Origin: Plasmodiophora brassicae
Taxonomy: Eukaryota
Length of the DNA stretch: 64,000 nt
Direction of reading: 5' to 3'
NCBI GenBank assembly: GCA_036867785.1
Contig: CP145428.1
Location: forward strand, 186,001-250,000
Position 1 is the stretch's first letter, and every line of letters begins with the position of its first letter. The notes under the pieces are model-generated. The model saw only the letters and a program-made list of their open reading frames with translations, searched no databases and was not told the origin of the DNA. The translations under genes were made by a program, and so were the position numbers. This document shows positions 2 to 18,117 of the stretch, piece by piece.

Positions 2-3000
2 GAGGACGACGACGATTACTCCGAGTTCGGGACCGTCCCGGCTGCGGGCGTCGATAGCTCTAGCGCTTCCGTCATCGCTCCCGATTGCCTCTCGGAGGTC
101 GCTGTCACTGATACGGTGGCCGCCGGTCACAGTGAACCGCCTGCTGCTGTTGTCGACAGCTCTAGCTCTCCCGCCCTCGCGCATGCCTGCCTCTCCGAGG
201 TCGCTGCCGCTGCTACTGTGGCAGCGTGCCACAACGATCCGTTATCATCGTTCCCCTCGGGCCCCGAGCCGTCGTGCGTCCGGCACCGTGGACCCGTCCG
301 TCGAGGGGCGGGACAACGCCTCTCGCCGCCTCGCCCCTCTGGCGGGCTTCGTGGTCGCCACATTATTAATCTTTTGATGACTGCATCCTTGGTCGCCCTG
401 GCCTGGGTCCTTGGGTGGACTTATCTTCCATTCACGCGGCTCCCTTCCGGCGCCTCTGCGGAGCCCCTGATCTCGAACGCCGCCGACGAGTCCTTCCTTA
501 CGCCCCTGGTCTCACCAGACGGTGACCCGGGGTCATCAACCTCGATTGCGTTCTTCAGCGCTGAGCCGTTTCTGGATGCTATCGTTGACGACGCAGCTTG
601 TTACCTTCTGCATTATACTTGGACCGAACTCGACTCGGACTCAGTCTCCGGGCCTGCGCTTCCTGACGCCTATCGCGAGTTCTCGGACGTGTTCGCCACT
701 GGCAGCCCGGCGTGCCTGCCTCCTCACCGCGCTTCCGATTGCCCCATCGATCTTAAGCCCGGCAAGGAGCCACCATTTTGTCGGTTATATGGTCTTTCCC
801 AACGAGAGCAGGTGGCCCTCAAGCAGTATCTGGAAGCCAATTTAAAGTCGAATTTCATTCGTCCTTCCCGTTCTTCGGCCGGTGCGCCCATTCTGTTTGT
901 ACGCAAGAAAGACGGCTCGCTGCGACTTTGTGTCGATTATCGCGTCCTAAATTCTGCCACGATCAAGAACCGGTATCCACTGCCTCTTATTGACCAACTT
1001 CTTGCCAACCTTAGTCGGGCCACGATCTTCACGAAAATCGACCTGCGCAGCGCGTATAATCAAATTCGTATCCGCGAAGGGGACGAGTGGAAGACGGCGT
1101 TTCGCACCCCGTATGGACTCTTCGAATATTTGGTTATGCCGTTTGGCCTCGCAAACGCACCGGCTTCGTTCCAGTCGTTCATGAATGATATGTTCAAGGA
1201 TTACCTCGACCAGTTCGTTGTCGTATATCTGGACGACATCCTTATTTTTTCTGCGAACGTCGCCGACCATGAACACCATGTGCGCCTCGTCCTGGAACGA
1301 CTTCGGGCTAGCAGTCTTACCGCTAATATGGAGAAGTGTGTTTTCGGCGCCAAGGAGGTCGAGTTTCTCGGCTACCTCGTTTCTCGAGACGGACTGCGCC
1401 TCGACCCTGCCCGTATCGACACTATCCTGTCTTGGCAACCGCCACGAGATATCCATGGTCTCCAAGTATTCTTGGGATTCGCCAATTTTTATCGCAAATT
1501 TATTCCTCACTTCGCGGAAATTGCTCTACCACTCACAAACCTGACGCGTGACGGTGTCGCCTTTATCTGGGATGCTGACGCTCAAGCTGCATTCGGCTCT
1601 CTGAAGGTTGCGTTCACATCGGCACCTGTCTTGGGCCATTTCGATCCTCATCAACCGTGTGATGTCGAGACCGACGCCTCAGACTTTGCCATCGCTATGG
1701 TCCTTTCGCAAAAGGGCGGCGCAGATGGGGAGTTGCACCCGATCGCCTACTTCTCGCGGAAGCTGATTGCTGCCGAGATTAGCTATCCCATTTACGACAA
1801 GGAACTCCTGGCGGTTGTGGAAGCGTTCACTAAGTGGCGGCAGTTCCTCGACTCAGATCAGCACCAAACGGTCGTGCATAGCGACCTTCGTAACCTCGTC
1901 CACTTCATGTCTACCCACAAGTTAAACAGACGTCAGGTTCGCTGGTCTCAACTGCTTAGCGAATTCGATTTCGTGATTCATCATCGTCCGGGGCGACTTC
2001 ATGGGAAGCCGGACGCCCTCACTCGTCGTCCGGAATACCAACCTTCGCCTGGCGACGAAGAAATTCTAGCAATGTCTCAACAGCTGCTTCCACCGCATCG
2101 CTTCTTCCGCCCGGACCCAGCTATTCTCTTTCTCCAGACCGGTACATCAGGCATCTCCCTTGTCGAACGTATTCGTCGCGAACAAGCCGATGACCCCTTC
2201 GTCCAGAAGACGTTATTATCGCTGGACGGGCCTCGTGGACGACGTTTCTGCGTTGCCGATGGTCTCTTATACAACGGAACCGCTCTCGTCGTCGCTGGTG
2301 AGGCCTGCAAGCTGGAAGTTCTGCACAGCCTTCACGACAACGTTACCGCCGGTCATTTTGGGGTTCGCAAGACATTGCAGCTCGTCAAGCGCGAGTTCTG
2401 GTGGCCCAAGATGTCCTCGTTCATCAAGGGTTACGTGGCGACCTGTGACACGTGTCGCCGCGTCAAACCTCCTCGCCATCGACCATCCGGCCTGCTACTT
2501 CCGCTACCAATTCCAACCGCTCTCTGGTCCTCCATCTCAATGGACTTTATCGTCAAGCTCCCCTCCTCCCGTGGCTATGACTCTGTACTGGTCGTGGTCG
2601 ACCGTTATTCGAACATGGCCCACTTTGTGGCGTGTCGAGAATCCATTTCCGCGGATCAGCTTGCCGATCTGTTTCTTCAGAACGTGTTCCGTCTGCATGG
2701 CCTGCCCGACGACATTGTCTCGGATCGCGGACCCCAGTTCGTATCGTTGTTCTGGAAGCACCTCCTATGCCGTCTCGGCGTTGAACGCCATCTGTCATCA
2801 TCCCGCCATCCCGAATCTGATGGCCAGACCGAGCGCGTCAACCAGATATTACAGCAATACCTTCGCTGTTATGTGTGCTACCTGCAAGACGACTGGGAGC
2901 CATTATTGCCGCTGGCCGAATTCTCTTACAATAACGTCGACCATTCGTCCACTGGAATGTCTCCCTTCTTCGCGAACTACGGCTACCACCCTCAGCTACG

Positions 3001-3034
3001 CGACCCTCGTCCTTGCAAACACGGTAGCTCCAAT
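2..3034 (+). CDS. Pol polyprotein 5' segment (RT-RNase H-integrase core)
   Basis: ORF 116..3118 is also open upstream to position 2. Residues after ...KHGSSN (codon 3032-3034) are read-through into the CACTA terminus. Confidence 0.92.
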
Positions 3035-3049
3035 CACTGGAAAAATAGG

Positions 3050-3170
3050 AGTGCCAAATTGGTGCCCCTACCTTCCCCGAGTGCCGAGGAAAGTGCCGAT
3101 TCCAGGAGCCAACAATAGGGAAGTGCCGATGTGGTGCAGGTGCATATCCTGGAGTGCCGAAATAGTGCCA
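3050..3170. repeat. Left subterminal (A)GTGCC repeat cluster of CACTA element
   Basis: About seven GTGCC(G/A/C) copies immediately inside the left TIR. Confidence 0.85.
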
Positions 3171-5923
3171 ACAGGTCCAACGCGCCAAAAAAGATTGTGA
3201 CGTCAAGCCGCCGGAATGCCCCATTTTTTGCGCCAGTCGTTGACTTCCGATCGTCGTGTTCGATCTGTGGACGATCGTTGTACCTGTGTGTGAGACGCGA
3301 CAACGGCACCAAACTCTAGCTCACCTCGCTTCGACGGCTTCGTCTGGATCTGGCTATCGTCCATCCGGTTGGATACCATGGAGGATGCTAACCCCATCAT
3401 TCGTGCATTTCCACGAGAAGGCTTTCTTGCCGCCGATGCAAGAAACGACCCTATTCTGAACCCGCGCCATGGTGTCGGCATCCCTGACGAAATGGATCGT
3501 CCGATCAGACAAACAATGGCTGTATCCTGGCTTCATGATGGTCCGCCGTTAATCGATTTCGACTTCACGGCCGGCTTATCAGACGACGTTGCTGGGATGT
3601 CTGCCGACCACATCCGGTCGGCGGAATTCCTTCGGAAGTACCGGAATGAGGTCGTCCTATCCGAGTTCCTAAAAGTCGAGATTCCGAAGCGCCTGGTTTC
3701 GTTGCAGGTGGATCCGTCCTCCATACGTGCGCTGGAGTGCTTGGATGAGTTTGCCCGCGGGCAGCATACGCAGGCGTCCCTGTGTCGCTCATTAGAACGA
3801 CTAAGCAAGGATGACGTAAGGCGCCAGGCCGAGTATACGAAATTCGTAAGCACCGTGTCTGACGAACGTTAGCTGTGTCTCTAATTCTGGTAGTTTAAGG
3901 AATACGCTGCCAGCAAGGGCTGTCCTGTGGACGACCTTGAAGAATGTTTAAACGCCGATCCTGTTCTTTCGCTGCAACGTTCTGGGGGCATCACCACTCT
4001 TGCCCAGCTACGCTCCTATCTGTCGGAGTCGGGCGTTTCGATACCGTCCCTCGAGTATCGCGTTTGCTGCAACGGTCACATGTGGCCAGCCTGCGACTCT
4101 CCATCGGACCAGGAGTGCTGCTCGAAGGCATCCGAACGTTTCTTCTACTTTTCCCGCATCCTATTTCTCCAATCGTTGTTTCGGTCGGCACACATGTCTG
4201 GCATCATTCGGTCGGAAATCGACCGACATCGAAATATTCTCTTGGGAGTTCGTTCTTCCGACACCATTCGCGACTGGACAGACGGCCAGTATTTCAAAGA
4301 TACGTATGGTCCTTTCATGCTGGAGGCGCTGCGCTTCAACGAATACCCTCTTGCGGTGACGTCTGGCATTGACGGCGCCGACGTCTTGAGATGGGGATCG
4401 GAATCGGTTACTCCGCTCATTCAGATACTCTTGAGTCTGCCTCCTGAGGTCCGGTGTAACCTCGGCCTTATCCATGCAGTCGGTTTAATACCGCACATCG
4501 CGCGAGGTCATCGTGCAGCGTTTCTTCGCCTCGACACGTTCGAATTAAACCTGATGTTCCAACTCGGGTTCCCTGTGTTCGATGCGACAACTGGGACGGC
4601 AACTGCAAGGGCAGTTCTATCGTGTGCTGTACGTACTCCCTTCTCCATCTGCTCGTGTCATTTCTGCTTACATATATCCAATTTGTGACAGACATTAGAT
4701 TACAAAGAGTTCAGCCTCACAACTCGTTGCTCCCAAGGCGGAAAGCTGGACGCCTGCAACCGGTGTCACGTTCAAGGCTATCATTTCGCGGCGAGCCACG
4801 CTACTGTGTTTCCAGGTCTTTGGCGATGGTCTTCTGAAGACGTCCGAGAGGCTGTAAGCCGCTATAATATTCGCGATTTGCACGGCCGTCTAAGACTTTG
4901 TACTCAGATGAGCAGATCGTTTTTCACGTCGATGACCGAACTGGGAAGAAGTAAGTTCCCGGAAAGTCCAGACGACCGAGATCGCGATCGAACTAGACGG
5001 CAGGAATGCCAGTTTCTCAAGGATGCTCAACCGAAACTGGATTCCGAGATGCGTCTGCGAATGACATCTGGTGATACCGGTGGGCATCGAGTCCCTGGCC
5101 ATGACATTTATTCAGTCGGATTATTGAGCGGGTTCGGCCATGCTTCGCAGTACGTGCATGATCCCATGCATGCATTCTGTATGCGTGTTATCCCGCGTCT
5201 GGTCAAGTGCTTCGATTGGCATGGGAATGGCAAAGAATTGCTTTCTCCAGAGGTTTGATCGCAATTTGTTGTACTTCATCGTCAAACTCATTTGCGGATT
5301 AGATCGATCGTGCGTGGTCGCGTTGTTCCCGACGTTCCCGTGTTGACGATTCCCAACAATCGCCGTTTTCCAGCGACGACTTTGGCTTCGTCTGCTGCAA
5401 GGCAGATTGGTAGTGCGATAGAGTCGTTGGAGTGGCCCACCGGAAACTGTGACCGCCCGAAGAACCCGTACCAGTCTTCGATGAAATCTCACGATTGGCT
5501 GATTTGGGCAAGTGATGTCGGAATCGCCATCTTTGCGGGTTTGATTGGCACGGCCCTGTTCAACAGTTCCGATTCTGCCCTATCCTGGGGAACTGTTTTC
5601 GCTTTCATGCACTCATCGATGATGATTCTGTCGAAGTCCTTCGACCGGTCGTCGTTCGACACTGTGGCGCAAACGTTCCTCGATGCGTGTGCCCGGCTGG
5701 AAACTGTAATTCCTGGCAAGCTGTTGACGATATCGGTACGTGCCCCGATTATCAATGTCGTATCTGTACATTCATCGCCGCACTGTTGCCGTTCAGATGC
5801 ATTCGATGATCCACCTTCCGGAAGTCATTCGCCAATGGGGCCCTCTTTCTGGCTTCGTATGGACCTATCCAATGGAACGGTGGATCAAGAGGATGAAGTC
5901 GATCCTGACAGCCACGCAAGGCT

Positions 5924-6099
5924 TGTGACGTCCCAACGGTGATGGTATATCAGCCGTGTAGTATATTCGTCTGTCTCCCCGACCTGCAGCTCCCACGGAC
6001 GCCGTGCGGACTCCGTGCGCACTCCGTGCATGTCCGTCATTCTTAGGGCGGCCTAGCCGGATCACAGCTATTCTTGTCTTATAGCTTGGAGCCGGCACA
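5924..6099 (-). repeat. 3' LTR of inner element
   Basis: Identical by eye to 11013-11188; minus-strand PPT GAAGGAGGGGAA at 6100-6111. Confidence 0.97.
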
Positions 6100-6297
6100 T
6101 TCCCCTCCTTCAAAGAAATGCTCCTCCTTGCAGGTGTCTTCAGTGGTGGTGTATCCTAATCATGTCTTCTCCTTAATATAGTCTAATTAACATAATTAAG
6201 TCTCAATCTTCGTAGAACACAGTTTTGGCTTCTGTCGTCACATGGCCGTCGGCATTAAAATAACCCAGCGCGCATCCGGGAAAAAAGCATGACTAGC

Positions 6298-9200
6298 CTA
6301 CTGGACTCCTTCCGCCTTAAGTAACTCCTTAACCTCATCAGCAAGGTGATGTTTCTCCTTCCTCATCCTGGCGGCATGTGCCTTCACCAGCTTCGGTACA
6401 TCCATCGCCAACCTGCAGATTGGCTCCCATGAATCCTCCGCTTCAGAGAAACCCTTCCATCCGATCAACAATTCCAATTCCCCTGTCTCCGGACTGTGCC
6501 TGCAGTCCTTGAAGACTTCAATGGCGAAACGCTCATTGTCATAATCCATCTGTCGCTTCAGTTCCTCAGTGGCATTCACTTTGCCATGTTCATAGAGGCG
6601 AACGCGGTCCCCGTGAACGGTTCGAGTGTCCGTCTCATTGAACATATTCCTCACCTCGTAGGTGTAGTTCTCGTGGCTATCAGTTATTTGATATAGGCCC
6701 CGCCACTTCATAAAGAGCTTCTTGCCCGGAACCTTACCCGGTTCAGGCAATCCGATGAGTACATAGTCACCGATCTGAAAGTTCGGTGCAGTTGCTCGTC
6801 GGTACGCGTCGCTCCTCTTCCTGTGTACGGCTCGGATTTTCTTCGATTGCTGCACTGCTCCCTTGTGCATTTCATTCAGCGACGTCTGCAATTGCATGAC
6901 TAGCTCCTGAATATGCTCCTTTGAGAGTGTAGCTTCCCCATACTTCTCATCCCCTGGCCTCTTGAACACTTGCTTCAGCGGGTTGTCTGGTTGACGTCCC
7001 ATCATCACTGTCACTGGCGCATTCCCGTTGGTACGCGCCTGCGACCTGTGATTGATCGTGTGTTCAATGTTGTGGTTCAACCATGGCCAATCGTATTTGT
7101 CCCACTGCAATTCAGACAGAAGTGCTCTGACTAGTTGCAAGTAGTTCCTGTTGATCACCTCAATTGATCCATTACTGTAATGCCCATAGGCAACAGTCGG
7201 GTGATGAGCAAATCCACATCGACGCGCCAGTTCCTTCACAACGTTTGCCAGAAAGCAAGACGCCATGTCTGACACCATCAACTCAAACGTTCCGAAGATA
7301 GCCCTCCATTCGAGCAGTGCCTCTACAGTGGTTTCCGCATTGGGTGTATGGTCAGGAGTAATCTTGACCATGCCAGACAGATCATCCCTGATTATCAGGT
7401 TCCATTGCAGATCATGTCTTCCGCCCTTCTGAGCCGCCATCATGTATAGCCAATCCAAGTGAATCACCTGATTCGGCCTAACACCATGAACAGCTGTTCC
7501 CAATGGCCTGGGAATCCTAACCCCGCCCCTTGTCGGTAGACAGTTCAAACACGCGTTGCAGAACGTCCTCATGTCCTCATCGCAGTGTGCCCAATGGCAG
7601 AACTCCCCCAACTTCCTCAACGAGGCCTTCAGTCCTAGATGCCCACTGTTTCCGCCCGCATGAGCAATAGCGCATAGCTGCAGCTTCAGCTCGTTGCATT
7701 CGTCTGGTATGATCACCTGTCCCTTCCCTGTGACGAAGAGATCATCACCATTCTTCGGTCGTTTCGTTCCTCTGAGCCATTTCCTCTGAGCCTTACGGAT
7801 TTCGTCCACGGTCGGCCATTGGAATTCCTTCCTTTGTAACGGCCGTACCCGATATCCGTCCTCAATTTGAAGCGTTATCCTCCTGATCGTGCGTACCTCT
7901 AGGTGCTGGTCATCAGGCCCACCGTCCGGTGCACCCCACCGCGTCATAAGATCCGACCACACATTGTCCTCCCCCGCAATGTGTTCAATGACGTAGTTGA
8001 CCCTCTGTATGTCCAGTGCCCATCGTTGCAGTTTCTGCGCCGTTGGCTTTGACACGTCCGTTGGTGAGAATATCCTCACGAGATTCCTATGATCGGTAAA
8101 CAAACGAAACTGCTCGTTGGTTGTAACGAGATAGTCCAGTTTGTCAATCCCATCCTTGATCGCGAACCCTTCCTTCTCCACCGTGGACCAGTTCCGCTCT
8201 GGGCCCGCGAACTTGTGTCCGACGAAACCCAGCGGTTCATGTCGCTGCCCATGCACTGGTTTACCCAAGTCCTCAGGCGGAATCTGTGTGACTACCGCCG
8301 CGCTGTTAACCTCATTTGCATCTGAGAATAGGCATTGGATCCGGTCCTTTCGCGGGTACGCTAGTTGGACCGTGTCCGCCACTGCCATCTTCAGTTTCTC
8401 GAATGCCAGCGCATGTTCGGGTGACCATCCATATTTGCACAATCGCACCCTCCTGGCAATGGCTTTCGTCCTGCCAGGTTGGTCCTTCATTGCATCCTCG
8501 TATATCCTCTGTAACAGGTGTACCTTCCTGTTGTACTCAGGGATGGACCTACTCATCCACTGAGTTGCCATAAGGAATTGTTGCAAGTCCCTTGCCGTCC
8601 TCGGCTGTGGTATCGCCATTAAAGCCTCAATCCTAGCAGGATCGTGCCTTACCCCTTCTGGCGTGAATATCCTTCCACAGAACCGAACCTCTGTTGTGAA
8701 GAGCTCACACTTCTCCACGTTGAACTTGATGCTGTGCCGTTCGGCTAGCATCAGAGTCCGTTCCAACGTTCGGAACCAATCATCCTCCCTTTGGGCATGC
8801 CCCATTAGATCATCGATCCATATGATTAGTTTGTGGAACATAAGTTCCCCGAACACCTCAAACATCCTCCCTTGATACTGAGGGGCGGAGTTCATTCCCC
8901 CCTGCATCGACCTCGTTGGCTTATACACCCCCTTATCTGTCATGAAGGAGAAGATCTCCTGACACGCTTCATCCAGCGGCATCATCCAGAAGCCTTTGAA
9001 CGCGTCTAGCTTAAACCAGAACCTCGAGCCTGCCAGGTTCCTCAGTATCGCCTCCTGATGTGGCATAGGCCACGCCACGGCGACACATTTGGCATTAACA
9101 GCTCTGAGATCAACACAGAACCGCTTTCCGCCCCCTGGCTTCGTCACCACCACCACCGGTGAAGCCCACTTCGCGTTGTAGTTTTCAACGACTAGGCCAT

Positions 9201-10965
9201 ACTTCTTCAATTGGGCGACGAATTCCTCCATGAAAGCACTGTCCTCCATACTGTACTTTCTGGCTCGGCACCTGTAAGGTTCCGCATCCGGTTTCAGCTC
9301 CGTGACAAATGGTGTAACCCTGGCTGGACCATCAGGTCCAATGCTCATACGCCAAACGTCCCTATATCTTCTGACGAGTTTCCGAAGCGATTTCCCCATC
9401 GCTTGCGGTAGGCCATTCCTCAATGCGCGCTCGACCATCCCGTCCATCTCCCTTTCCAGGGAGTCTGTGGAATCGGTTCCGATCCTCACATCCTCTGTTT
9501 CCTCTTCCTCCCCTTCCCAGAGAGGTGGCATCTCGTTTGCCATATTGTGCACTTCATCCATGACGTCATTCCCCTTCTTCGGCGTGCTCTTAATGAGTAC
9601 GTCCAGGGCCTTCTTTGGGTGGATACCCAAGTCGTCCAACAGCCTCTCCCCTAGGATTATTTCCTTTTCAGGAATGTCCCATACAAGGCATCGGCGCCGG
9701 CGAGTGATCAGTTCGCCTGCCGTCGTCGTCAGTCCCAGATCCAGTATCATCACATGGTAGGCTGTGTGCTTCGTTTCTCTGTCTACCAGACAGAACGTTT
9801 CCGGCTTCTGGAGGTTCTCCATTGTTAACAATGGGTCCCGCTCCATTAGCTCGCGCGCTATGGTCAATGGCATCAGAACGTCAACCGATGTCGCTCCACT
9901 GTCCAGAACCCCAACGTAGTCTTCCTCATGTCCGTTTACACGAACGACTACTTGGTCCCCTGTCCTCTGCGCCCCCTCCGACACTCTTCCTACCACTGGA
10001 AGCCATGGGTACTCTGACAAGTCGTCATCTTTATCAGATTTGGCCTTACGGGGTCCATCCCTTCCCGTTGGCCCCTTGCGGCGATCCTTCAGCAGGTCTG
10101 CGACCTGCTTCTTGGTAGGCTTCTTCGGGCAACGAAACGCTGGATGTCCAACCTCGTCACAGTTGAAACATCGCAGGTCCTTCCGGTGTCGTTTCGTGTC
10201 CCGGCCTCCATCGCCTCCTTCATCCGTCTGCGCCCCTCGCTTCTTCGGGGTGGGTTTGACCTTTCCCTTCCCCTTGCCATCCTCACGTCCCGGCTCCATG
10301 TACAACATCGTCTCCTCATACGATGCAGCCCGTTCCTTCAGCACCCGATAGAATTCCAAAGGGTCCTTCTGGAGATCGGTCTGGCGCTTCATGACGAGGG
10401 TCCGCATGAGCGCTTGTAAACCGGATGGGCGCACAGCACCCAGTAGGTACTTGACCAGGTTCTTCCGTCCCTCGCGGGACGTGAAGAGGTCCTGCCACCC
10501 GTTGCGCGCGACCAATTCCTCGTACTGCTGCACGAGGTTCACGACCCTTGCCGCTGGTGTGGTGATGGTCAGCTTCATCGCCAGCTTCCGCATCTCCCGG
10601 TCGATGTTCGCGTCCGTCGAGCGATCCTGCTCCAGATGCCTCTTCATCCAGTCCATCAGGTCGCTCTCCGTCACCCCCTCGGCGTCCGTGCCGAGTTCCC
10701 ACTTGCAGATCGCCCTGAGCAGACCGGGGTCGATCATACTCCTCACTGACCGTGGGATCTGGCCCTTGGCATTCGGATCGTCCCGGAAGTGATTCCGATA
10801 CGTCTTCAGCTCGGCCATGAACGTCGTGACGGCCTTGCGGTCCATGCTCTTCAAGGTCGGCGCCTTGTTCATCTGCAGGACGATCGTTGAGCCTTGCACG
10901 CTCTGTCCTTGTTGTCGATCATCGACGTCATCTTCCAGCAGCATCTCCTGCGCGGTGGCCACCAT
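6298..10965 (-). CDS. Gag-Pol: CCHC knuckle, aspartic protease, RT, RNase H, integrase, chromodomain
   Basis: CFNCDEVGHPAFRC; VLDSGAT; KLDAFKGF and WIDDL; FSDAN/EKE/FTDH; IHLDW, VSDMA, GSIEVIN; LIGWKGFSEAEDSWEP. Likely start is MVATAQ just inside the LTR; the upstream part of the listed ORF is LTR read-through. Confidence 0.95.
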   Translation of the reverse strand: MVATAQEMLLEDDVDDRQQGQSVQGSTIVLQMNKAPTLKSMDRKAVTTFMAELKTYRNHFRDDPNAKGQIPRSVRSMIDPGLLRAICKWELGTDAEGVTESDLMDWMKRHLEQDRSTDANIDREMRKLAMKLTITTPAARVVNLVQQYEELVARNGWQDLFTSREGRKNLVKYLLGAVRPSGLQALMRTLVMKRQTDLQKDPLEFYRVLKERAASYEETMLYMEPGREDGKGKGKVKPTPKKRGAQTDEGGDGGRDTKRHRKDLRCFNCDEVGHPAFRCPKKPTKKQVADLLKDRRKGPTGRDGPRKAKSDKDDDLSEYPWLPVVGRVSEGAQRTGDQVVVRVNGHEEDYVGVLDSGATSVDVLMPLTIARELMERDPLLTMENLQKPETFCLVDRETKHTAYHVMILDLGLTTTAGELITRRRRCLVWDIPEKEIILGERLLDDLGIHPKKALDVLIKSTPKKGNDVMDEVHNMANEMPPLWEGEEEETEDVRIGTDSTDSLEREMDGMVERALRNGLPQAMGKSLRKLVRRYRDVWRMSIGPDGPARVTPFVTELKPDAEPYRCRARKYSMEDSAFMEEFVAQLKKYGLVVENYNAKWASPVVVVTKPGGGKRFCVDLRAVNAKCVAVAWPMPHQEAILRNLAGSRFWFKLDAFKGFWMMPLDEACQEIFSFMTDKGVYKPTRSMQGGMNSAPQYQGRMFEVFGELMFHKLIIWIDDLMGHAQREDDWFRTLERTLMLAERHSIKFNVEKCELFTTEVRFCGRIFTPEGVRHDPARIEALMAIPQPRTARDLQQFLMATQWMSRSIPEYNRKVHLLQRIYEDAMKDQPGRTKAIARRVRLCKYGWSPEHALAFEKLKMAVADTVQLAYPRKDRIQCLFSDANEVNSAAVVTQIPPEDLGKPVHGQRHEPLGFVGHKFAGPERNWSTVEKEGFAIKDGIDKLDYLVTTNEQFRLFTDHRNLVRIFSPTDVSKPTAQKLQRWALDIQRVNYVIEHIAGEDNVWSDLMTRWGAPDGGPDDQHLEVRTIRRITLQIEDGYRVRPLQRKEFQWPTVDEIRKAQRKWLRGTKRPKNGDDLFVTGKGQVIIPDECNELKLQLCAIAHAGGNSGHLGLKASLRKLGEFCHWAHCDEDMRTFCNACLNCLPTRGGVRIPRPLGTAVHGVRPNQVIHLDWLYMMAAQKGGRHDLQWNLIIRDDLSGMVKITPDHTPNAETTVEALLEWRAIFGTFELMVSDMASCFLANVVKELARRCGFAHHPTVAYGHYSNGSIEVINRNYLQLVRALLSELQWDKYDWPWLNHNIEHTINHRSQARTNGNAPVTVMMGRQPDNPLKQVFKRPGDEKYGEATLSKEHIQELVMQLQTSLNEMHKGAVQQSKKIRAVHRKRSDAYRRATAPNFQIGDYVLIGLPEPGKVPGKKLFMKWRGLYQITDSHENYTYEVRNMFNETDTRTVHGDRVRLYEHGKVNATEELKRQMDYDNERFAIEVFKDCRHSPETGELELLIGWKGFSEAEDSWEPICRLAMDVPKLVKAHAARMRKEKHHLADEVKELLKAEGVQ

Positions 10966-11012
10966 CGCGTCCTTCTTTGAAACCTTCCCCGAAAGGATGT
11001 TCAAGAGATCTC

Positions 11013-11188
11013 TGTGACGTCCCAACGGTGATGGTATATCAGCCGTGTAGTATATTCGTCTGTCTCCCCGACCTGCAGCTCCCACGGACGCCGTGCGGAC
11101 TCCGTGCGCACTCCGTGCATGTCCGTCATTCTTAGGGCGGCCTAGCCGGATCACAGCTATTCTTGTCTTATAGCTTGGAGCCGGCACA
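11013..11188 (-). repeat. 5' LTR of inner element
   Basis: Identical by eye to 5924-6099. Confidence 0.97.
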
Positions 11189-13611
11189 GGCTTCACAATG
11201 AACATCGCCGGCAACGTTCAGCTGATCTCCGCGGCAGCGTTGCTGAGGCTAGACCTACACAGTATGTACATGTTCGACAACGACAACCCGTTTCTGTTCG
11301 GGTGCCCGGACTCGTTTCCGGCGTCGCTACCGATTGAATTCAAAGGCGAAATCAAGGCGTACGTGCTGAACACTATGGAGCGAGCCTGGCTGCATGCGAC
11401 ACTGGTCGACGAGGAGCAGTGGCCCAGCTTACGCAACCATCCGTGGAGGCGCAAGTACGTGCAGCTTGTCGAGCAGTTCGAACGTTCGACTGGCGTTCAG
11501 ATATCCTCGTATCACCACGTCAGGCGCCAGCTGTCAAACTTTGACGCTTTTTGTCAGACTGGGGACATTCAGCAGCAGTACCATGGTCTATGCCTTCCAA
11601 GTCGCCTGGATTGCTGCGATCGTCTTCTAGTCGGTACGTCTTTCGTAGGGCGGATGCTGCTGTTAATCGTATTTAATCGTTGCAATTCTTAGGTGCGTGT
11701 CTCTTTCGAACACATGATGCTGATACCTCCTACCGGAAGTCGAGCAATCGTCACTTCTTGGCGAACTTCACTGACGACGGCCTGTACCTTGGAACAGCCG
11801 AAATGTTCTGCATGCTGGAGTTACCGTATTACGATGGTCATGGCCAATCTACCCTTTTCCCGATCATCCGCGTTTCCGCCTGGAAGAAGCTCAAGCGTGT
11901 TGGGGGATCTGTCGGCGGGAGACTGCCGCAGTTCATCAGAGGTTCGCATGCTCTTCGTGGATGTTTCTCATGTATTGATTTGTACATTTGTTCAGGCAAT
12001 CCTATCCGTCCTGGCGATGACGAATCGCCCTGGGTTGCTGCCAATGAGATCGAAAGCAACAATGTCGTCCTTGTTGCCTGCCAAATTCCGTGTGGTGGCC
12101 GTCATGTACACGCTAAACTCGTCTGCGTAGTTCCTCGTGGCAACATGGCACCGAGCTGTCTATATTCTACAGTGCCCAACGAATAAAAACATTCTGCACG
12201 GCGCGTCTAACCTTCACAACCGTAGCGCCTGAGCGGGCGCCCCTTTCGCAGCGCCGGCTCGGTAGTTCCCCACCAGGGCACCGTTTTCTTCCGTCCCGAT
12301 GGGGCCCTCTCCACCACACGATTGTCGAATGGGGCCCGACGCTGTTCCTCCACCACTCACTGACAAGGTGGCGCGCGATCCAAATTCCGATCCGGGCCCC
12401 GACACCGACGACGACTTGGCACCCGCATCCTCATTCTTCAAATGCCATCGGCAGCAGACGCATCGGTATACGAACGGTTCGCAGCGCAAGGACCTCACCG
12501 GGCCCTGACGCCGGAGCGCAAGGTTCTGTGCGCTTGGTTTCCTGGTCTGTATGCCAGGTATTCGTTTGTGTGTGTCCGAAGTCAAGGACGTTAATTGCTC
12601 TCGTTTATCAGTGTGTACACGTCAGGCCATCGGGAGCGGAACTGTCCCACTAAGAACGCCGTCCTGCATCAGAGAATCCTGGCGGAGGCGGCGGTACAGC
12701 TGGGCTTAATTGCCCGCTCAAGAGTGGACCATGGAAGACACCCGCCAGCGTATGTCGATTGTTTGGAATTCCACTTTATATGCGTTTCTAATTTGCCGAA
12801 GTCATCAAGCAGTACAGGAGGGCGCTACACAGAAGGACGGGGCAGGTTCGTCGCAGGACCTCATCAAATGCCATCTTCCGTGACCTCTCACGTACTCGAC
12901 CACGTCTGCCTCCGGCGTTTGATTTGATAACAGTCAGCTTGATGTGCAGTACGGAACGATAACCTATTCCAGTTCCTATTCCAGTTGAGGAACGAGTACA
13001 TCCAAGCGGCGGAGGAACCCGTCTTCGCCAGCACCTCATTTTATTCATTATTCTCGGGCGCGATCAAGGCGGCGCTGCGGGACGCGGTACGTATTCGACG
13101 GTTCTGGCGACTCCATTACTTACAATGCGTTCGGATGCAGTCCCAGTATCAAGTGCCTTCGCATCCGGCTGGCCCCAATGGTACGCAACGACAGCGTTTA
13201 ACATCATGTGTTCCCTCATTGCGTTATGTATGAATATAGGCGGCCTTGCGGGTAGGGGCGGTGGAGGGTACGACCGTTGTTGTTCACATCCAGTTGCATC
13301 ATTTGACATGCAGGTTTTAGGCCCTGAGGATGTTCGTGGGTGGCGGACAATGAAGCTCTGCCACTTAGGCGATCCGGAAGGCATATTGGCGTCGTGGTTA
13401 ACGGCGGATCGGCGCCCATCAAGAAACAGCTACCGTTCAATAAACCATTCGTTAATCTTATTCTATTCTATTGTTAACGGCAATACCAAATACGATAGTG
13501 TCTCAGAATCTGGGGTACCATTCTATTCTATTACTGGACGGAGCAAAAATTCAATCGAGATTTTTGGAGAATGCCCGTGGAGCGCATTTTTTGGGAAATC
13601 CGGTCCCGAAA

Positions 13612-13711
13612 ACGGCACTTAATTGGCACTACCTAGTGCCGAATTGGTGCCGCTAAACGCCGAAAAGGTGCCGATTGGGTAATGAAGGGGACGGCACTAA
13701 TTCGGCACTGA
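13612..13711. repeat. Right subterminal GGCAC(T)/GTGCC repeat cluster of CACTA element
   Basis: Multiple direct and inverted GGCACT/GTGCCG copies before the right TIR. Confidence 0.85.
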
Positions 13712-13724
13712 TATTTTTCCAGTG

Positions 13725-14316
13725 AATCCCTCTGCCGATGAACGCGTGGAGAACTTGACGGCCATTCGCCGTTACCTACACCGCCAACTGCATCGTGCTG
13801 TCAGCACCATGAAACGAGCTGCGGATCGGAAACGCCGACCTCATCCCGACTTCAAGATCGGGGAGTTGGTCATGCTCCGTCGAGGGGCAATTGCGACTGG
13901 CCGGCCATGCGGTAAGCTGGATGTCCAAATGCTCGGGCCTTTCGAAGTTAGTCGCATCGTTAATCCGGTCGCCTACGAACTCCTGCTCCCGGCATCCTTC
14001 CGCATCCACAACGTCTTCCACGCATCCCAACTGGAACCGTACGTCCCGAACGTGATACCCCATCGTGTGCAGCCTCCGCCACCCCCGATTCTGCTCGACG
14101 ACGACGACCAACCGCTGTTCATCGTGAAGGAGGTCCTGGACTCTCGATACCGTGCTGGTAAGCTGCAGTATTATATCGACTGGGAAGGGTACCCTGCATC
14201 CGAGCACCTGGGAACCCGCCTCCAACTTGCAGGGCACCGGCGGATTCGATCGCCTGCTCGCGGCATTCCACGCTCGGTACCCAGACAAGCCCGGACCCCG
14301 TCTTCGACGCCCGTAA
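13725..14316 (+). pseudogene. Pol 3' segment: integrase C-terminus and chromodomain, apparently frameshifted near the chromodomain end
   Basis: NPSADERV...GPFEV...IHNVFHASQL...FIVKEVLDSRYRAGKLQYYIDWEGYPASEH; the expected WEP motif (tgggaaccc, ~14209) lies in another frame. Confidence 0.85.
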
Positions 14317-14329
14317 AAGGGGACTATTA

Positions 14330-14475
14330 TGTCACGGTCGAGTCGCTGTCTTGGCGACTCAGCCGGCACGTAATTGGGCTCCTCCGCAGCGCACTACTAC
14401 AATAAACGTCCACGGCGTTGGACCGACCTCAGTCGGTCAATCCGTGTGGTTGACACATCTTGCTCTGTCGTCACA
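14330..14475 (+). repeat. Putative 3' LTR of outer gypsy element
   Basis: Starts TGTCAC shortly after purine tract AAAAGGGGA (14315-14323), contains AATAAA (~14401) and ends GTCACA. The 5' LTR is not in the window, so the right end is unconfirmed. Confidence 0.6.
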
Positions 14476-14609
14476 GTTTGTATCAGGAGCGGAATGCGTT
14501 CGTGGTCGGATACGCGTTATACGGGATATCGAGCGTTTGTGTGTTGTCCTTCGCTTCGTCACGATGTACTGCTAAATGCCGATCATTGATGTTAATCTGG
14601 CGTATGATG

Positions 14610-15110
14610 CTAGTAGATGCTAGAGAATGGCCGGACGAGGAGACGTTGGCGGAATTTCGCGATCATAGCGAGGCGGTCAGTCATCAGTGTGGCCGTCCGT
14701 GCACACCTGATGGCCTCGCCCTTAATGTACCCACGGATGCATGCCGGGTTGTGCTGCGACTGGGGCGGCAGGTATGTGCGAAAGGCGATCTTGTTGTTGT
14801 GCTTGAATACTATCAGGTTGAGGAACGCGGCAGCTGTAGTGGAAGTCGTCACGTTAGCTTCAACACCTGGGATTGTGTTGTTCATCAGGTTGATCACTTC
14901 AGTCAGCTTCTATGGACTTCCCCGATATCTGGCGAACACGTCCTCGATGAATCGGCCATAGTATCGAAATCGAGGCACGTGTTCTTCATCGAATCCCGCC
15001 ATGTAGATGTTGGCGCTGATGACGTTGTTGCCCATTGCGATAGCGTCCAGCTGTTTGTATATTTGCGAGCATGACTGAAAATAATTGGCCTCGCAGATGA
15101 GCAGCCCTCT
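14610..15110 (-). pseudogene. Penelope-like retroelement reverse transcriptase relic
   Basis: YKQLDAIAMG...ANIYM...YGRFIEDVF (degenerate YxDD), then AFLNL and HNPACIRGYIKGEAIRCAR typical of PLE RT C-terminus; contains a stop and deletions. Confidence 0.75.
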
Positions 15111-15411: not shown

Positions 15412-15621
15412 GTACTTTGATAAGTTCAATTAATAGCCACAATCTTCTTTAAGAACCAACTTCTACGGCAAAAACAGCTGCATCCACCTGTGCATCCTCA
15501 CTGCATCACCAATGGGAACCCCCTGCATCCCCATGAAATTGCGCCCACGGCTCCCCCGTACGGAGTACGGACTGCGATGCGTACGGACTGCGATGCGGAC
15601 ACCCCTGTCAATTTCGAGGAG

Positions 15622-18117
15622 ATGGCTCGGCATCGTGCTCAGCGTCCGAGGCGCAACCGCCCACCCCTGGCTTCTGGTATGCTTTCGCGTCGCTCGTTTG
15701 AAACGTAGCAGCTTCTCAGAGCGTCTTACTGTAGCGTTTACGCTCACTGCTGCTCAAAAAGCTGTGGTTGCGCGACGCGTTGCTGAAGAGATCGCGAAGC
15801 TCGAGCTGCAGGTCAACGAGGAAGACCGAAGAAAGGTCTTCGGTAACAGAGTGCTTGCTGAGAATTCAGAAGCGTCTTACTACGTTCACTATCGTGGTCT
15901 CAAGTACTTCTGTGCCCTGATCGGCGACTACAAGTCGCTGATCCTGCTCGGTGACTGCATTCCCAAGTACGCCCCGTCCATGTTAGCCCGCATGATTGTA
16001 CGCTACATGGACTGGAAGACCGGCGAAGAAGGATCTGCACTGCTTGACGTTAATGGCGCCTCAGTTGTCGACGTTGACGGTAACGCTGTCGTATGCGACG
16101 GGCAGTGGAAGAATCCGGGAACACTTGTCCAGTTTCTCGCCGCCGTTTCGAACGCACACAAGGCCGCGGGCATGGACGGCGTTGCTTATGCCGAGCCATG
16201 CGACCAATGTGTCGATCTGTACGAAACGAGGGGTTCAGTCAGCGGCTGCCGCCATCATGCTGGACGGTCTGTGTTGAACCAGTGCGGAAACGTGAGGTTC
16301 AGTCAGGACGTTATGGAAGCCTACGCCCGGTTGAGCAAGGTCATCCTGCGTGGATTCGTCCCCCACGGCGACTCGATGGTGTCCCCAAAAGAACTCATGG
16401 ACCTTAGGAACGTTCTGATGGGCACAGGCAGGATCAAAGACATTCGTCTATGGACGATGATTCTGTTCTCGGTTCGTTTGTTTTGTAGACCGGACCGCCA
16501 ACTAGGCCACGAGAGCAGCTGCTCCCGTGGCCTAGTTGGGCGGTCCGGTCTACAAAACATCTCACCGGCGGGAGTTCGAGCCTCCCCGCAGTCCGCAGTG
16601 GACGACGACGAGTTTTGGGGAGGATGTGTAGATACGTTACGTACGGATGCGCCGGTCACGAGAGTAGGTCTGCGAGTCGCTTGCAACGGTAGGCGGCGGA
16701 CATCGCTCGATCATCGGGGGGCTTGAGCTTCTCCGGTGAGATGTTTTGTAGACCGGACCGCCCAACTAGGCCACGGGAGAATCAGTCAAGTGCAGAGTCG
16801 GCGATTTCGTCGAGCAGCTGACAGTTGTTGATGAAGGCGTCGTCAAGCAACTGGCGGTAACCATTAAGGGCAAGCGGGATACCAACCCAGTAGTTCTTCT
16901 TATCCACCGAGACGACGACGTTCCTGAGTTCTGTCTCCAGCGACACTTGTTAGCGTGGGTCAGTTTGTCGAGAACCGGACCCAACCGATCGGTATACCTC
17001 TTTCCGCACGCCAAGAAGCCCGATAGCCCGTTCCCGAAGAGCAAGTTTCTACGTAATGCTGGGAAGATTGTTGAAGCAGTGACCGAAAGAGATGGGCCGT
17101 GGGGGACTCACTGGATGCGGAAGACCGGCTCCCTGTTAGGGACCTGGGGCGGAGCGTCCGACATCGACCTCCAGCACGCGTTCCGTCATTCCTCGATGGC
17201 GATGACGTCACAGTACAAGGCGGACTCCTCAGCTCTGCTTGAGCATGCGAAGAATCAACCGTATGCCAACTCCCTGCATTGAGGTTCAGGTTACTGATAT
17301 CATTCCATTAGGGACGACGCCATGATTCGACTTGCACCGCGATGGCGTCCCATTTACGTGGAGAACCTGCAGATCAATATGAATGCGCGCCAAGTAGACG
17401 ACGACGTGGTTAGCCTTGCAAACGGATCCTATTCGTTCTACTAGTACATTCCACCTTGTAACCCTGAATAACCTAAGTAAGGTTCAGCGACGAGCACTAA
17501 ACAAGCTAGGTAAATAGTGTCCGGACACTAAATTGAGAGGGCTGTCAGGCGTGCCTGCCCACGACCTGGCACCGGGCACGTGAAAACCAACAAAGAAAAG
17601 ATTCGCGGAAAAGACGAAAGAGCTGTTTCATGGGTACGTTGCAGCGTCTTCACGCCAATGTCACCCTGACGTCAGACATGATGGCACGAATCAGGCTCTG
17701 CAGGCTGGTTCTGACAAATCGAGGAACGGTGCAATTTACCGAGGCGTCTTGAATGGTGCAATTTACCAAGGCGTTTTGAACTTCTTCCGCAGTCGGGGAA
17801 TTGCAAACAGTGACGCCGTGCAATGGCTCTTCGACGAGACGAAGCGGAGTAAGTGCATGCACTGACTGACAACAACGTGTGCTTAATGTGGTATTAAACC
17901 TGCAGTGATTAAAAACTTTCTGGCCAACGCCAAGGCTGCCGCTGGCGTCAGTACTCGCAAGGAACCAACAAAGCATCGCTTTAAAAGAGCGCCAACCGGC
18001 ATGATCACCGGAGACGGGCCCAAATTCCGCTTCTTGGAGCGTCTATGGGCCCGAATGAAAGAATCCCAGACGGCCATCCAGGCCTGGACGGAGAGGAGAT
18101 ATTGGAACGCGCTATGA
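15622..18117 (+). pseudogene. Crypton-type tyrosine recombinase, disrupted
   Basis: ATG 15622, intron 15677-15734, ORF to WTMILFSVRLF; resumes ~16779 with ESVKCRVGDF...IKGKRD...GTHWMRKTG...AFRHSSMAMTSQY (K, HxxR, H, Y of YR fold). The 3' exons are degenerate. Confidence 0.8.
16479..16779. mobile_element. Insert of inverted tRNA-like heads (SINE/MITE-like)
   Basis: 81-bp palindrome 16479-16559; 16522-16568 is the exact inverted repeat of 16733-16779; A-box TGGCCTAGTTGG (16528-16539) and B-box GTTCGAGCC (16574-16582). Confidence 0.7.

Follow-up and report, generated by a model that had tools for sequence, protein, structure and literature searches.

The subject of this report is an insert in a Crypton-like tyrosine recombinase gene copy of Plasmodiophora brassicae. 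It lies in a window of 64,000 nucleotides (nt) of contig CP145428.1 (assembly GCA_036867785.1, positions 186,001 to 250,000), and all positions below are counted from the first letter of this window. The insert (16484-16778) consists of 295 nt that take the place of 12 nt of the gene, and the locus can be described as one damaged mobile element lodged within a second one. The leading reading, to which we give about an even chance, is that the insert is a non-coding piece of a multi-copy inverted-repeat family resembling MITEs (miniature inverted-repeat transposable elements), and that it was captured at a DNA break and not inserted by a transposase. MITEs are non-autonomous class II elements. 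If so, the locus is a base-exact case of repeat DNA caught at a break by microhomology and disabling a transposon's own recombinase, and it puts on record, for a parasite whose genome is compact, a repeated module of palindromic or MITE-like form.

The empty site, the junctions and the interrupted gene

The boundaries of the insert are based on contigs of four public sequencing runs placed on 16000-17300. Three of these runs are labelled 'DNA?' (X1, X3 and X10) and one 'RNA?' (X9), the latter being a guess. Among the 24 runs listed, the best has a share of 0.70 of the sampled words, and none is given as a holder of RNA, several being RNA by guess only; the contigs described here are those listed, next to 650 further pieces and 115 further loose ends. 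In all four runs a contig passes from 16483 to 16779 with only 12 letters in between; on its shorter side, this joint is backed by 26, 196, 140 and 255 letters. In translation the 12 letters give LRSD, the residues also found in the closest protein, P0003 (727 aa, source name Plasmodiophora brassicae), which reads SVRLF-LRSD-ETVKC at this site. Another paralog, again in X1, passes from 16476 to 16785 by way of 25 letters, which likewise encode ...LRSDET. Since the empty-site contigs differ by about 2% from the window in their flanks, they represent paralogs and not the window copy. An earlier note on this DNA had proposed that uninterrupted paralogs be used to define the empty site, and they do so to the base: the presence and layout of the insert are as described there, while its ends at 16479 and 16779 have to be moved to 16484 and 16778.

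Sequence inspection reveals no target-site duplication, neither at 16483/16484 and 16778/16779 nor around 16519-16779, which agrees with the earlier note. The gene sequence immediately to the left of the insert (16466-16483) resembles a stretch within the insert (16729-16746), with 12 of 18 bases matching and the last five identical. Only 20 of the 127,966 18-mers of the window match that well (binomial P 2.3e-4), a statistic that was chosen post hoc. At the right junction one or two bases are shared at most. The loss of 12 nt of target, the lack of a target-site duplication and the position of the left junction within a 5-nt identity together argue for end joining or template switching, as these are the marks of such repair and not of integration by a transposase.

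The interrupted gene copy extends from 15533 to 17420 on the plus strand, as determined by tblastn of P0003 against the window. Residues 1-271 of P0003 correspond to 15533-16495 and residues 272-470 to 16779-17420; the C-terminal half (16779-17279) is 98% identical. Because the remaining ~257 C-terminal residues have no significant match beyond 17420 in the window, the copy is considered 3'-truncated. In an alignment with 14 relatives, the catalytic half (16779-17260, plus strand) retains the later motifs KGK, THxxRKT (the H-x-x-R motif), RH and Y. The motif L(F/L)LR, present in all 14 full-length relatives, falls exactly in the gap between ...SVRLF and ESVKC... of the window, so that the first catalytic arginine, kept by every one of them, is gone. 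The relatives possess the full Crypton-type catalytic set (R, HxxR, H/W, Y), whereas the window copy, without its first arginine, does not. The earlier note had placed the insert on this arginine, in exchange for a few codons between SVRLF and ESVKC; P0003 and the relatives confirm the position, and the codons number exactly four (LRSD). The net gain amounts to 283 nt (1 mod 3) and also shifts the reading frame. With LRSD and its arginine lost, the frame shifted and the 3' third missing, the window copy is a broken member of its family that cannot make an active recombinase.

The label Crypton-like is derived from the stand-alone recombinase architecture and from what is typical of the class. 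The Pfam Phage_integrase model matches the C-terminal half weakly (E 0.0074; 16.5 bits, below the cut-off of 27.1). In a representative protein library, 599 proteins are related to the N-terminal half at E <= 0.001, and several distinct forms of the recombinase paralogs occur among the contigs of the public runs.

A reading of the insert as a spliced intron, or as an introner, was considered and rejected. The paralogs hold 12 coding letters here in an uninterrupted exon, the net gain is 1 mod 3, and no GT..AG pair restoring the four replaced codons can be read from the sequence. Introners are MITE-like insertions that turn into introns. Like them, the insert is an inverted-repeat element situated in coding exon sequence of a protist rich in introns, but it differs in replacing four codons and in having an uninterrupted counterpart in the paralogs. 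That the paralogs might carry the same sequence as an intron had been named in the earlier note as an outcome contrary to its proposal, and it is not what they show.

Several smaller observations concern the same gene. In frame, the first insert bases (16484-16495) encode CRPD at the position of LRSD in the relatives, with 6 of 12 bases alike, and many tblastn alignments extend four codons into the insert as a result; this mimicry of the lost motif is probably due to chance. Directly 3' of the catalytic half, a gap in the tblastn alignment with P0003 marks a 51-nt GT..AG intron (17261-17311, plus strand). An in-frame stop at 17280 falls inside it, and its removal joins ...KNQP to DDAMIRLAPRW..., as in P0003. 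At 15860-15895, opposite residues 74-75 of P0003, the window encodes a segment of about 24 residues, VFGNRVLAENSEASYYVHYRGLKY, that is absent from P0003. Since VFGNRVLAENSEASYYVHYRGLKY is retained in the window and in more distant relatives, the P0003 gene model is probably mis-spliced at this point. The source name of P0003 is tagged '(mitochondrion)', yet the gene looks nuclear and transposon-borne. Within the open reading frame (ORF) lies a 20-nt direct repeat (16223-16242 and 16287-16306, 90% identical). Contigs in all four runs jump from 16234 to 16308 (73 nt), close to these repeats, and some paralogs therefore carry a deletion or replacement there. Other paralog forms jump from 16077 to 16190, or show an opposite-strand join at 16161/16445.

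Anatomy and multiplicity of the insert

The inverted repeat of the insert consists of a pair of arms of 47 nt, the left at 16522-16568 (plus strand) and the right at 16733-16779 (minus strand), which are 100% complementary and 164 nt apart in an inverted-repeat search of 16200-17100. A shorter unit, here called the head, is present three times. Head 1 (16484-16518, minus strand, 35 nt) abuts head 2 (16519-16554, plus strand, 36 nt) end to end, and head 3 (about 16747-16778, minus strand) is contained in the right arm. Head 2 is followed by a 14-nt extension, a T-arm-like hairpin (16570-16586, plus strand; 5-bp stem and 7-nt TTCGAGC loop) and a core of about 120 nt without coding capacity (16590-16710); after the core come a diverged counterpart of the hairpin, another 14-nt extension and head 3. 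The only frames in the 258 nt from 16522 to 16779 are read-through of the host gene or short stop-to-stop frames.

Two further inverted pairs of 21 nt, 16479-16499 with 16539-16559 (100%) and the adjacent 16498-16518 with 16519-16539 (95%), jointly form an 81-nt near-perfect palindrome at 16479-16559, centred on CAGCTG. It looks 81 nt long, and not 71, because its first five bases, TGTTT at 16479-16483 (plus strand), are recombinase gene bases, retained in the empty-site contigs, that are identical to 16742-16746 left of head 3. Both this palindrome and the opposed second copy on the minus strand, 47 bp exact and with a decayed B-box, had been described in the earlier note, and the repeat search and the alignment of the arms bear it out. 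The potential for folding is considerable. An 82-nt stretch comprising the palindrome folds at -72.5 kcal/mol (z = -16.0), a value equalled by none of 200 shuffles, and the whole 321-nt stretch, folded as DNA, reaches -97.8 kcal/mol (z = -10.6; 0 of 100 shuffles as good).

The copies are not equivalent in detail. Inward of the identical 47-nt arms, some 20 further bases are still about 75% alike as read from the alignment, the differences being mostly transitions. This likeness indicates that both arms formerly held a full unit of about 68 nt. Compared with heads 2 and 3, head 1 is one base short in a C run and has one substitution, and the outer end of head 3 is without the final bases present in the other two heads at the centre of the palindrome. 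Heads 1 and 3 share the same orientation. Given this and the layout, the insert looks like slightly more than one unit, as if cut from two head-to-tail elements or from a circle junction.

Within the window the head is confined to this locus. A 32-nt head string has two matches at up to three mismatches, a number reached by none of 100 shuffles. BLAST of 16401-16850 against the 64-kb window returned no match exceeding 14 nt beyond the locus itself, and no further copy of head or core. An exact 20-nt head string had no match in a metagenome-contig collection and none in a genome-contig collection.

The sequencing runs indicate that the head is repeated in the genome, as the earlier note had assumed, by the summed depth of the contigs and by many distinct flanks. 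Summed depth does not equal copy number, and it is taken solely as a sign of multiplicity, alongside the loose ends of contigs. In the head bins (16484-16571) it amounts to 97,682 and 56,969 in X1, 13,885 and 12,461 in X3, and 15,623 and 20,225 in X10, against about 750-2,900, 238-464 and 874-1,500, respectively, in the flanks. The right-arm bins (16704-16791) are raised as well (11,659-14,694 in X1; 1,781-2,048 in X3; 5,793-6,827 in X10). The core bin (16616-16659) stays near the flanks in all three DNA runs, with 2,884, 269 and 835. The T-arm-like part at 16570-16586 is situated where the depth is already down several-fold. At 16554/16555 contigs continue into unrelated sequence, at least 4 of them in X1, 7 + 4 in X3, 6 + 6 in X10 and 2 in X9. 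On the other side, contigs with unrelated sequence before them start at 16484 (at least 3, 4 and 2) or at 16517 (at least 3 in X3 and at least 3 in X10). Flank agreement at the listed loose ends is 0.44-0.60, without a consensus, which by our own arithmetic is about the level of unrelated sequences. The loose ends and the raised depth taken together limit the shared module to about 36-38 nt (roughly 16517-16554, as predicted from the contig ends), with sharp limits on both sides.

Abutted heads are not restricted to the locus in the window. One X3 contig follows the right arm to 16765 and continues from 16503 onward, so that right arm, palindrome centre and next head are contiguous. In each of the four runs one contig has the last 10 nt of head 1 ahead of head 2 with a different flank. 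Two X10 contigs, of 515 and 5,634 nt, span the palindrome between unrelated flanks, and contigs of X1, X3 and X10 hold two inverted heads with 13 other letters between them. The inner part of the insert is found without change: a 224-nt contig of X9 reproduces 16539-16762 in every letter, and exact internal contigs cover 16539-16647 (X1), 16612-16718 (X3) and 16580-16655 (X10). The X9 contig ends 30 nt into each 47-nt arm, as would be expected of a 31-mer assembly halting at a repeat.

Arrival of the insert and competing explanations

On the basis of these data, the following course of events can be proposed. A double-strand break would have occurred in an already decaying Crypton-like recombinase gene. 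Most likely, the insert was then copied or ligated into this break by microhomology-guided end joining or template switching. The source sequence would have been a 35-nt head directly abutting a small element that is nearly complete, itself made up of head, extension, core of about 120 nt, extension and inverted head. As DNA or as RNA, the insert should be able to fold into very stable hairpins, and any read-through transcript would hold long double-stranded stems. The earlier note had mentioned joining of the heads by hairpin or template-switch repair as one of two options, and this option fits the junctions best.

A number of observations weigh against capture at a break. None of the listed contigs bridges the junctions between gene and insert, which leaves the arrangement of the locus to the assembly. 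Some letters of the window copy, for example 16939 and 17129-17131, are seen in none of the four runs; contigs can drop rare paralog variants, however, and unseen letters or junctions are therefore not evidence of absence. The homeology at the left junction was assessed after the fact, as stated above. Furthermore, an amplified MITE does not usually have a core that, as here, looks low-copy, and a simple one-step copy from a single element does not fit, as head 1 differs at two places. Finally, X1 alone has a contig of depth 248 that connects 16498 with 16720 across opposite strands; this other arrangement of head and core fits none of the explanations proposed here.

Canonical transposition followed by damage is an unlikely, though not negligible, alternative. 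A MITE (16519/16522-16779) would have inserted with a target-site duplication beside or into an older copy of the family, and a subsequent deletion would have swept away the duplication along with 12 nt of the gene and the greater part of the older copy. The perfect 47-nt arms and the MITE-like size are in accordance with such a course, as are the two differences in head 1, which are expected of a different, older copy, and the abutted heads at other loci. On the other hand, it takes at least two events, the deletion would have had to end by chance in the 5-nt identity and the 12/18 match, and no remnant of a duplication is present on either side. It could also be imagined that the insert was put into this gene copy by mis-joined repeat-containing reads. 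No run among the 24 exceeds a share of 0.70 of the sampled words, and the missing junction contigs and unseen letters point the same way. The letters are explained by collapse of paralogs in contigs, though, and a base-exact swap of 12 nt for 295 nt with microhomology is unlike the usual chimeric joins. As 16539-16762 is found exactly in a contig of another run and the palindrome centre in contigs of other runs, such an assembly artefact is quite improbable. A very improbable explanation, finally, is that the head of about 36 nt is a dispersed palindromic module, such as a binding or recombination site or a HUH-type hairpin end, of which the locus is one cluster. The shared module is indeed short, sharp on both sides and often present in abutted inverted pairs, and end hairpins as well as the absence of a target-site duplication are typical of Rep/HUH elements, according to the part of PMC10288648 consulted. 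However, neither a Rep/HUH gene nor a target motif is in evidence, and the Replitrons described in that part of the same paper have short direct terminal repeats, unlike the inverted 36-nt heads of the insert (PMC10288648).

The remaining explanation concerns the nature of the arms, which the earlier note had described as tRNA-like heads with promoters for RNA polymerase III (Pol III). Tests for tRNA do not sustain this description. ARAGORN finds no tRNA gene in the 64-kb window and none in a region of 450 nt, be it under default settings, under -ps or when introns are permitted. If its thresholds are reduced to 80% and 60%, it makes 1 and 4 calls in the 450 nt and 172 and 224 in the window; the call of the unit appears only at the relaxed ps80 setting, which gives 172 window calls, and was rejected as noise. 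In a search of Rfam with the 86-nt unit, tRNA is the sole match at E <= 10 and the alignment uses the D-arm-like and T-arm-like parts, but the score is 12.7 bits versus a gathering threshold of 29 (E 2.5). By our own arithmetic such a score is expected about 0.4 times per 64 kb, counting the tRNA model alone. The stretch 15500-17800 has ten Rfam matches at E <= 10, none of them tRNA and all far below gathering. These matches, with MIR7526, mir-187 and snaR-A among them, were set aside as generic long-hairpin matches, the top microRNA and snaR-A alignments covering the long hairpin. A single head folds no better than shuffled sequences (z +0.93; 168 of 200 shuffles at least as stable). As the earlier note had stated, there is no proper acceptor stem or anticodon arm: ARAGORN and the fold of the single unit yield no cloverleaf.

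The promoter boxes give a mixed picture. A type-2 Pol III promoter requires a B box. The strict 11-nt consensus patterns of A-box and B-box have no match in the window. A looser A-box-like 12-mer has three matches in 64 kb, one in each head (shuffle mean 1.1), and 16570-16586 is the window's sole perfect hairpin with a 5-bp stem and a TTCRANN loop (shuffle mean 0.19). The heads with A-box and B-box of the earlier note are present in the looser form of the A-box and in one T-arm hairpin, but not as strict boxes. Of the three copies, a single one has an intact B-box/T-arm, which is decayed in the right arm and absent from head 1. It is improbable that the arms are tRNA-derived Pol III units and the whole a hybrid of a MITE and a short interspersed nuclear element (SINE), in which convergent transcription leads to double-stranded RNA. 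The three A-box-like matches, the T-arm-like hairpin that the left arm carries at a fitting distance, the sole Rfam family and the traces of a former 68-nt unit in both arms would suit this idea. They are countered by the sub-threshold tRNA score, the noise level of the ARAGORN calls, the unremarkable fold of the head and the number of A-box-like matches expected from shuffled windows, as well as by the position of the T-arm outside the highest summed depth and by the absence of a poly(A) or simple-repeat 3' tail at the insert and of a target-site duplication. The same low probability applies to its wider form, a hitherto undescribed Plasmodiophora inverted-repeat family with end-to-end palindromes and with tRNA-like Pol III arms, the A box lying in the conserved 36-nt head and the T-arm/B box immediately inward of it, in which transcription of intact members from both arms would deliver hairpin or double-stranded RNA to the small-RNA machinery; the small RNAs would perhaps act against other transposons, such as the host Crypton. 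Were this true, it would amount to a mobile element of new design, a claim that the present evidence does not carry. The resemblance to tRNA is real, yet weak and within what a degenerate or chance match may produce. The head may descend distantly from a tRNA-related sequence; nothing indicates a working Pol III promoter in the heads.

Known systems, literature and genomic setting

Compared with known systems, the insert shares features with several and agrees fully with none. The earlier note's designation as a MITE-like element holds for the perfect 47-nt terminal inverted repeats and for the small size (~260 nt) and non-coding nature of the insert, to which the repeated terminal sequence and the hairpin potential may be added. 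It does not hold for the target-site duplication, which is lacking; also unlike a MITE are the 12 nt of lost target, the extra abutted head, the apparently low-copy core, the shared module of only about 36 nt and the lack of a known autonomous partner. What the unit has in common with tRNA-derived SINEs is that an A-box-like motif lies close to its 5' end and that some 40 nt further downstream a T-arm-like hairpin follows. In contrast to these SINEs and their dimeric forms, the units of the insert are inverted and not direct, and they possess neither a 3' tail nor a target-site duplication; the unit does not rise above noise in tRNA models, and a B-box is found in one of three copies. Filler DNA, templated or captured where double-strand breaks are rejoined, is similar in the few target bases lost, the absence of a duplication, the short-identity junction and the origin from a repeat. 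Compared with filler DNA, 295 nt is long. The host gene, for its part, is Crypton-like in being a stand-alone tyrosine recombinase ORF of a large family with R..K..HxxR..H..Y in the relatives, while the window copy departs from a Crypton in the loss of the first arginine and of the 3' part and in its integrase match below the Pfam cut-off.

Repeats in the P. brassicae genome are given as under 2% in the consulted part of PMC4815078 and as 5.4% in that of PMC4471660, which also reports genes for Argonaute and a single protein in which the RNase III domain occurs twice. The consulted part of PMC11191646 lists repeats as broad classes only; a term search of its supplementary archive gave 0 occurrences, although a repeat table may be present there in a format that the search does not cover. 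Nothing relevant to the insert family was found in the consulted parts of PMC6823432 and PMC12903343, nor is the family described in the searchable text of the P. brassicae genome papers, which name broad repeat classes. Among the matches listed there was nothing pertinent on P. brassicae in combination with Crypton, nothing on MITEs of the parasite itself, and none with a title on tRNA-derived terminal inverted repeats in MITEs. Long perfect inverted repeats are trouble spots for assembly and replication, and the locus is useful as a check of P. brassicae assemblies.

The recombinase gene belongs to a transposon cluster that occupies the first ~17 kb of the window. One pol-type frame (2-3118, plus strand) encodes RVT_1, RNase H, an integrase zinc-binding domain and the rve integrase core. 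Another (6301-11217, minus strand) has RVT_1, RNase H and the integrase zinc-binding domain without a match to rve, and a separate integrase SH3/chromodomain fragment is located at 13701-14405 (plus strand). The two ORFs bearing reverse transcriptase are more than 4 kb away from the recombinase and look like separate Ty3/Gypsy elements. Past ~17 kb, ordinary-looking genes (ankyrin, HEAT, WD40-like) follow, and the G+C content climbs from 51-57% to 60-74%.

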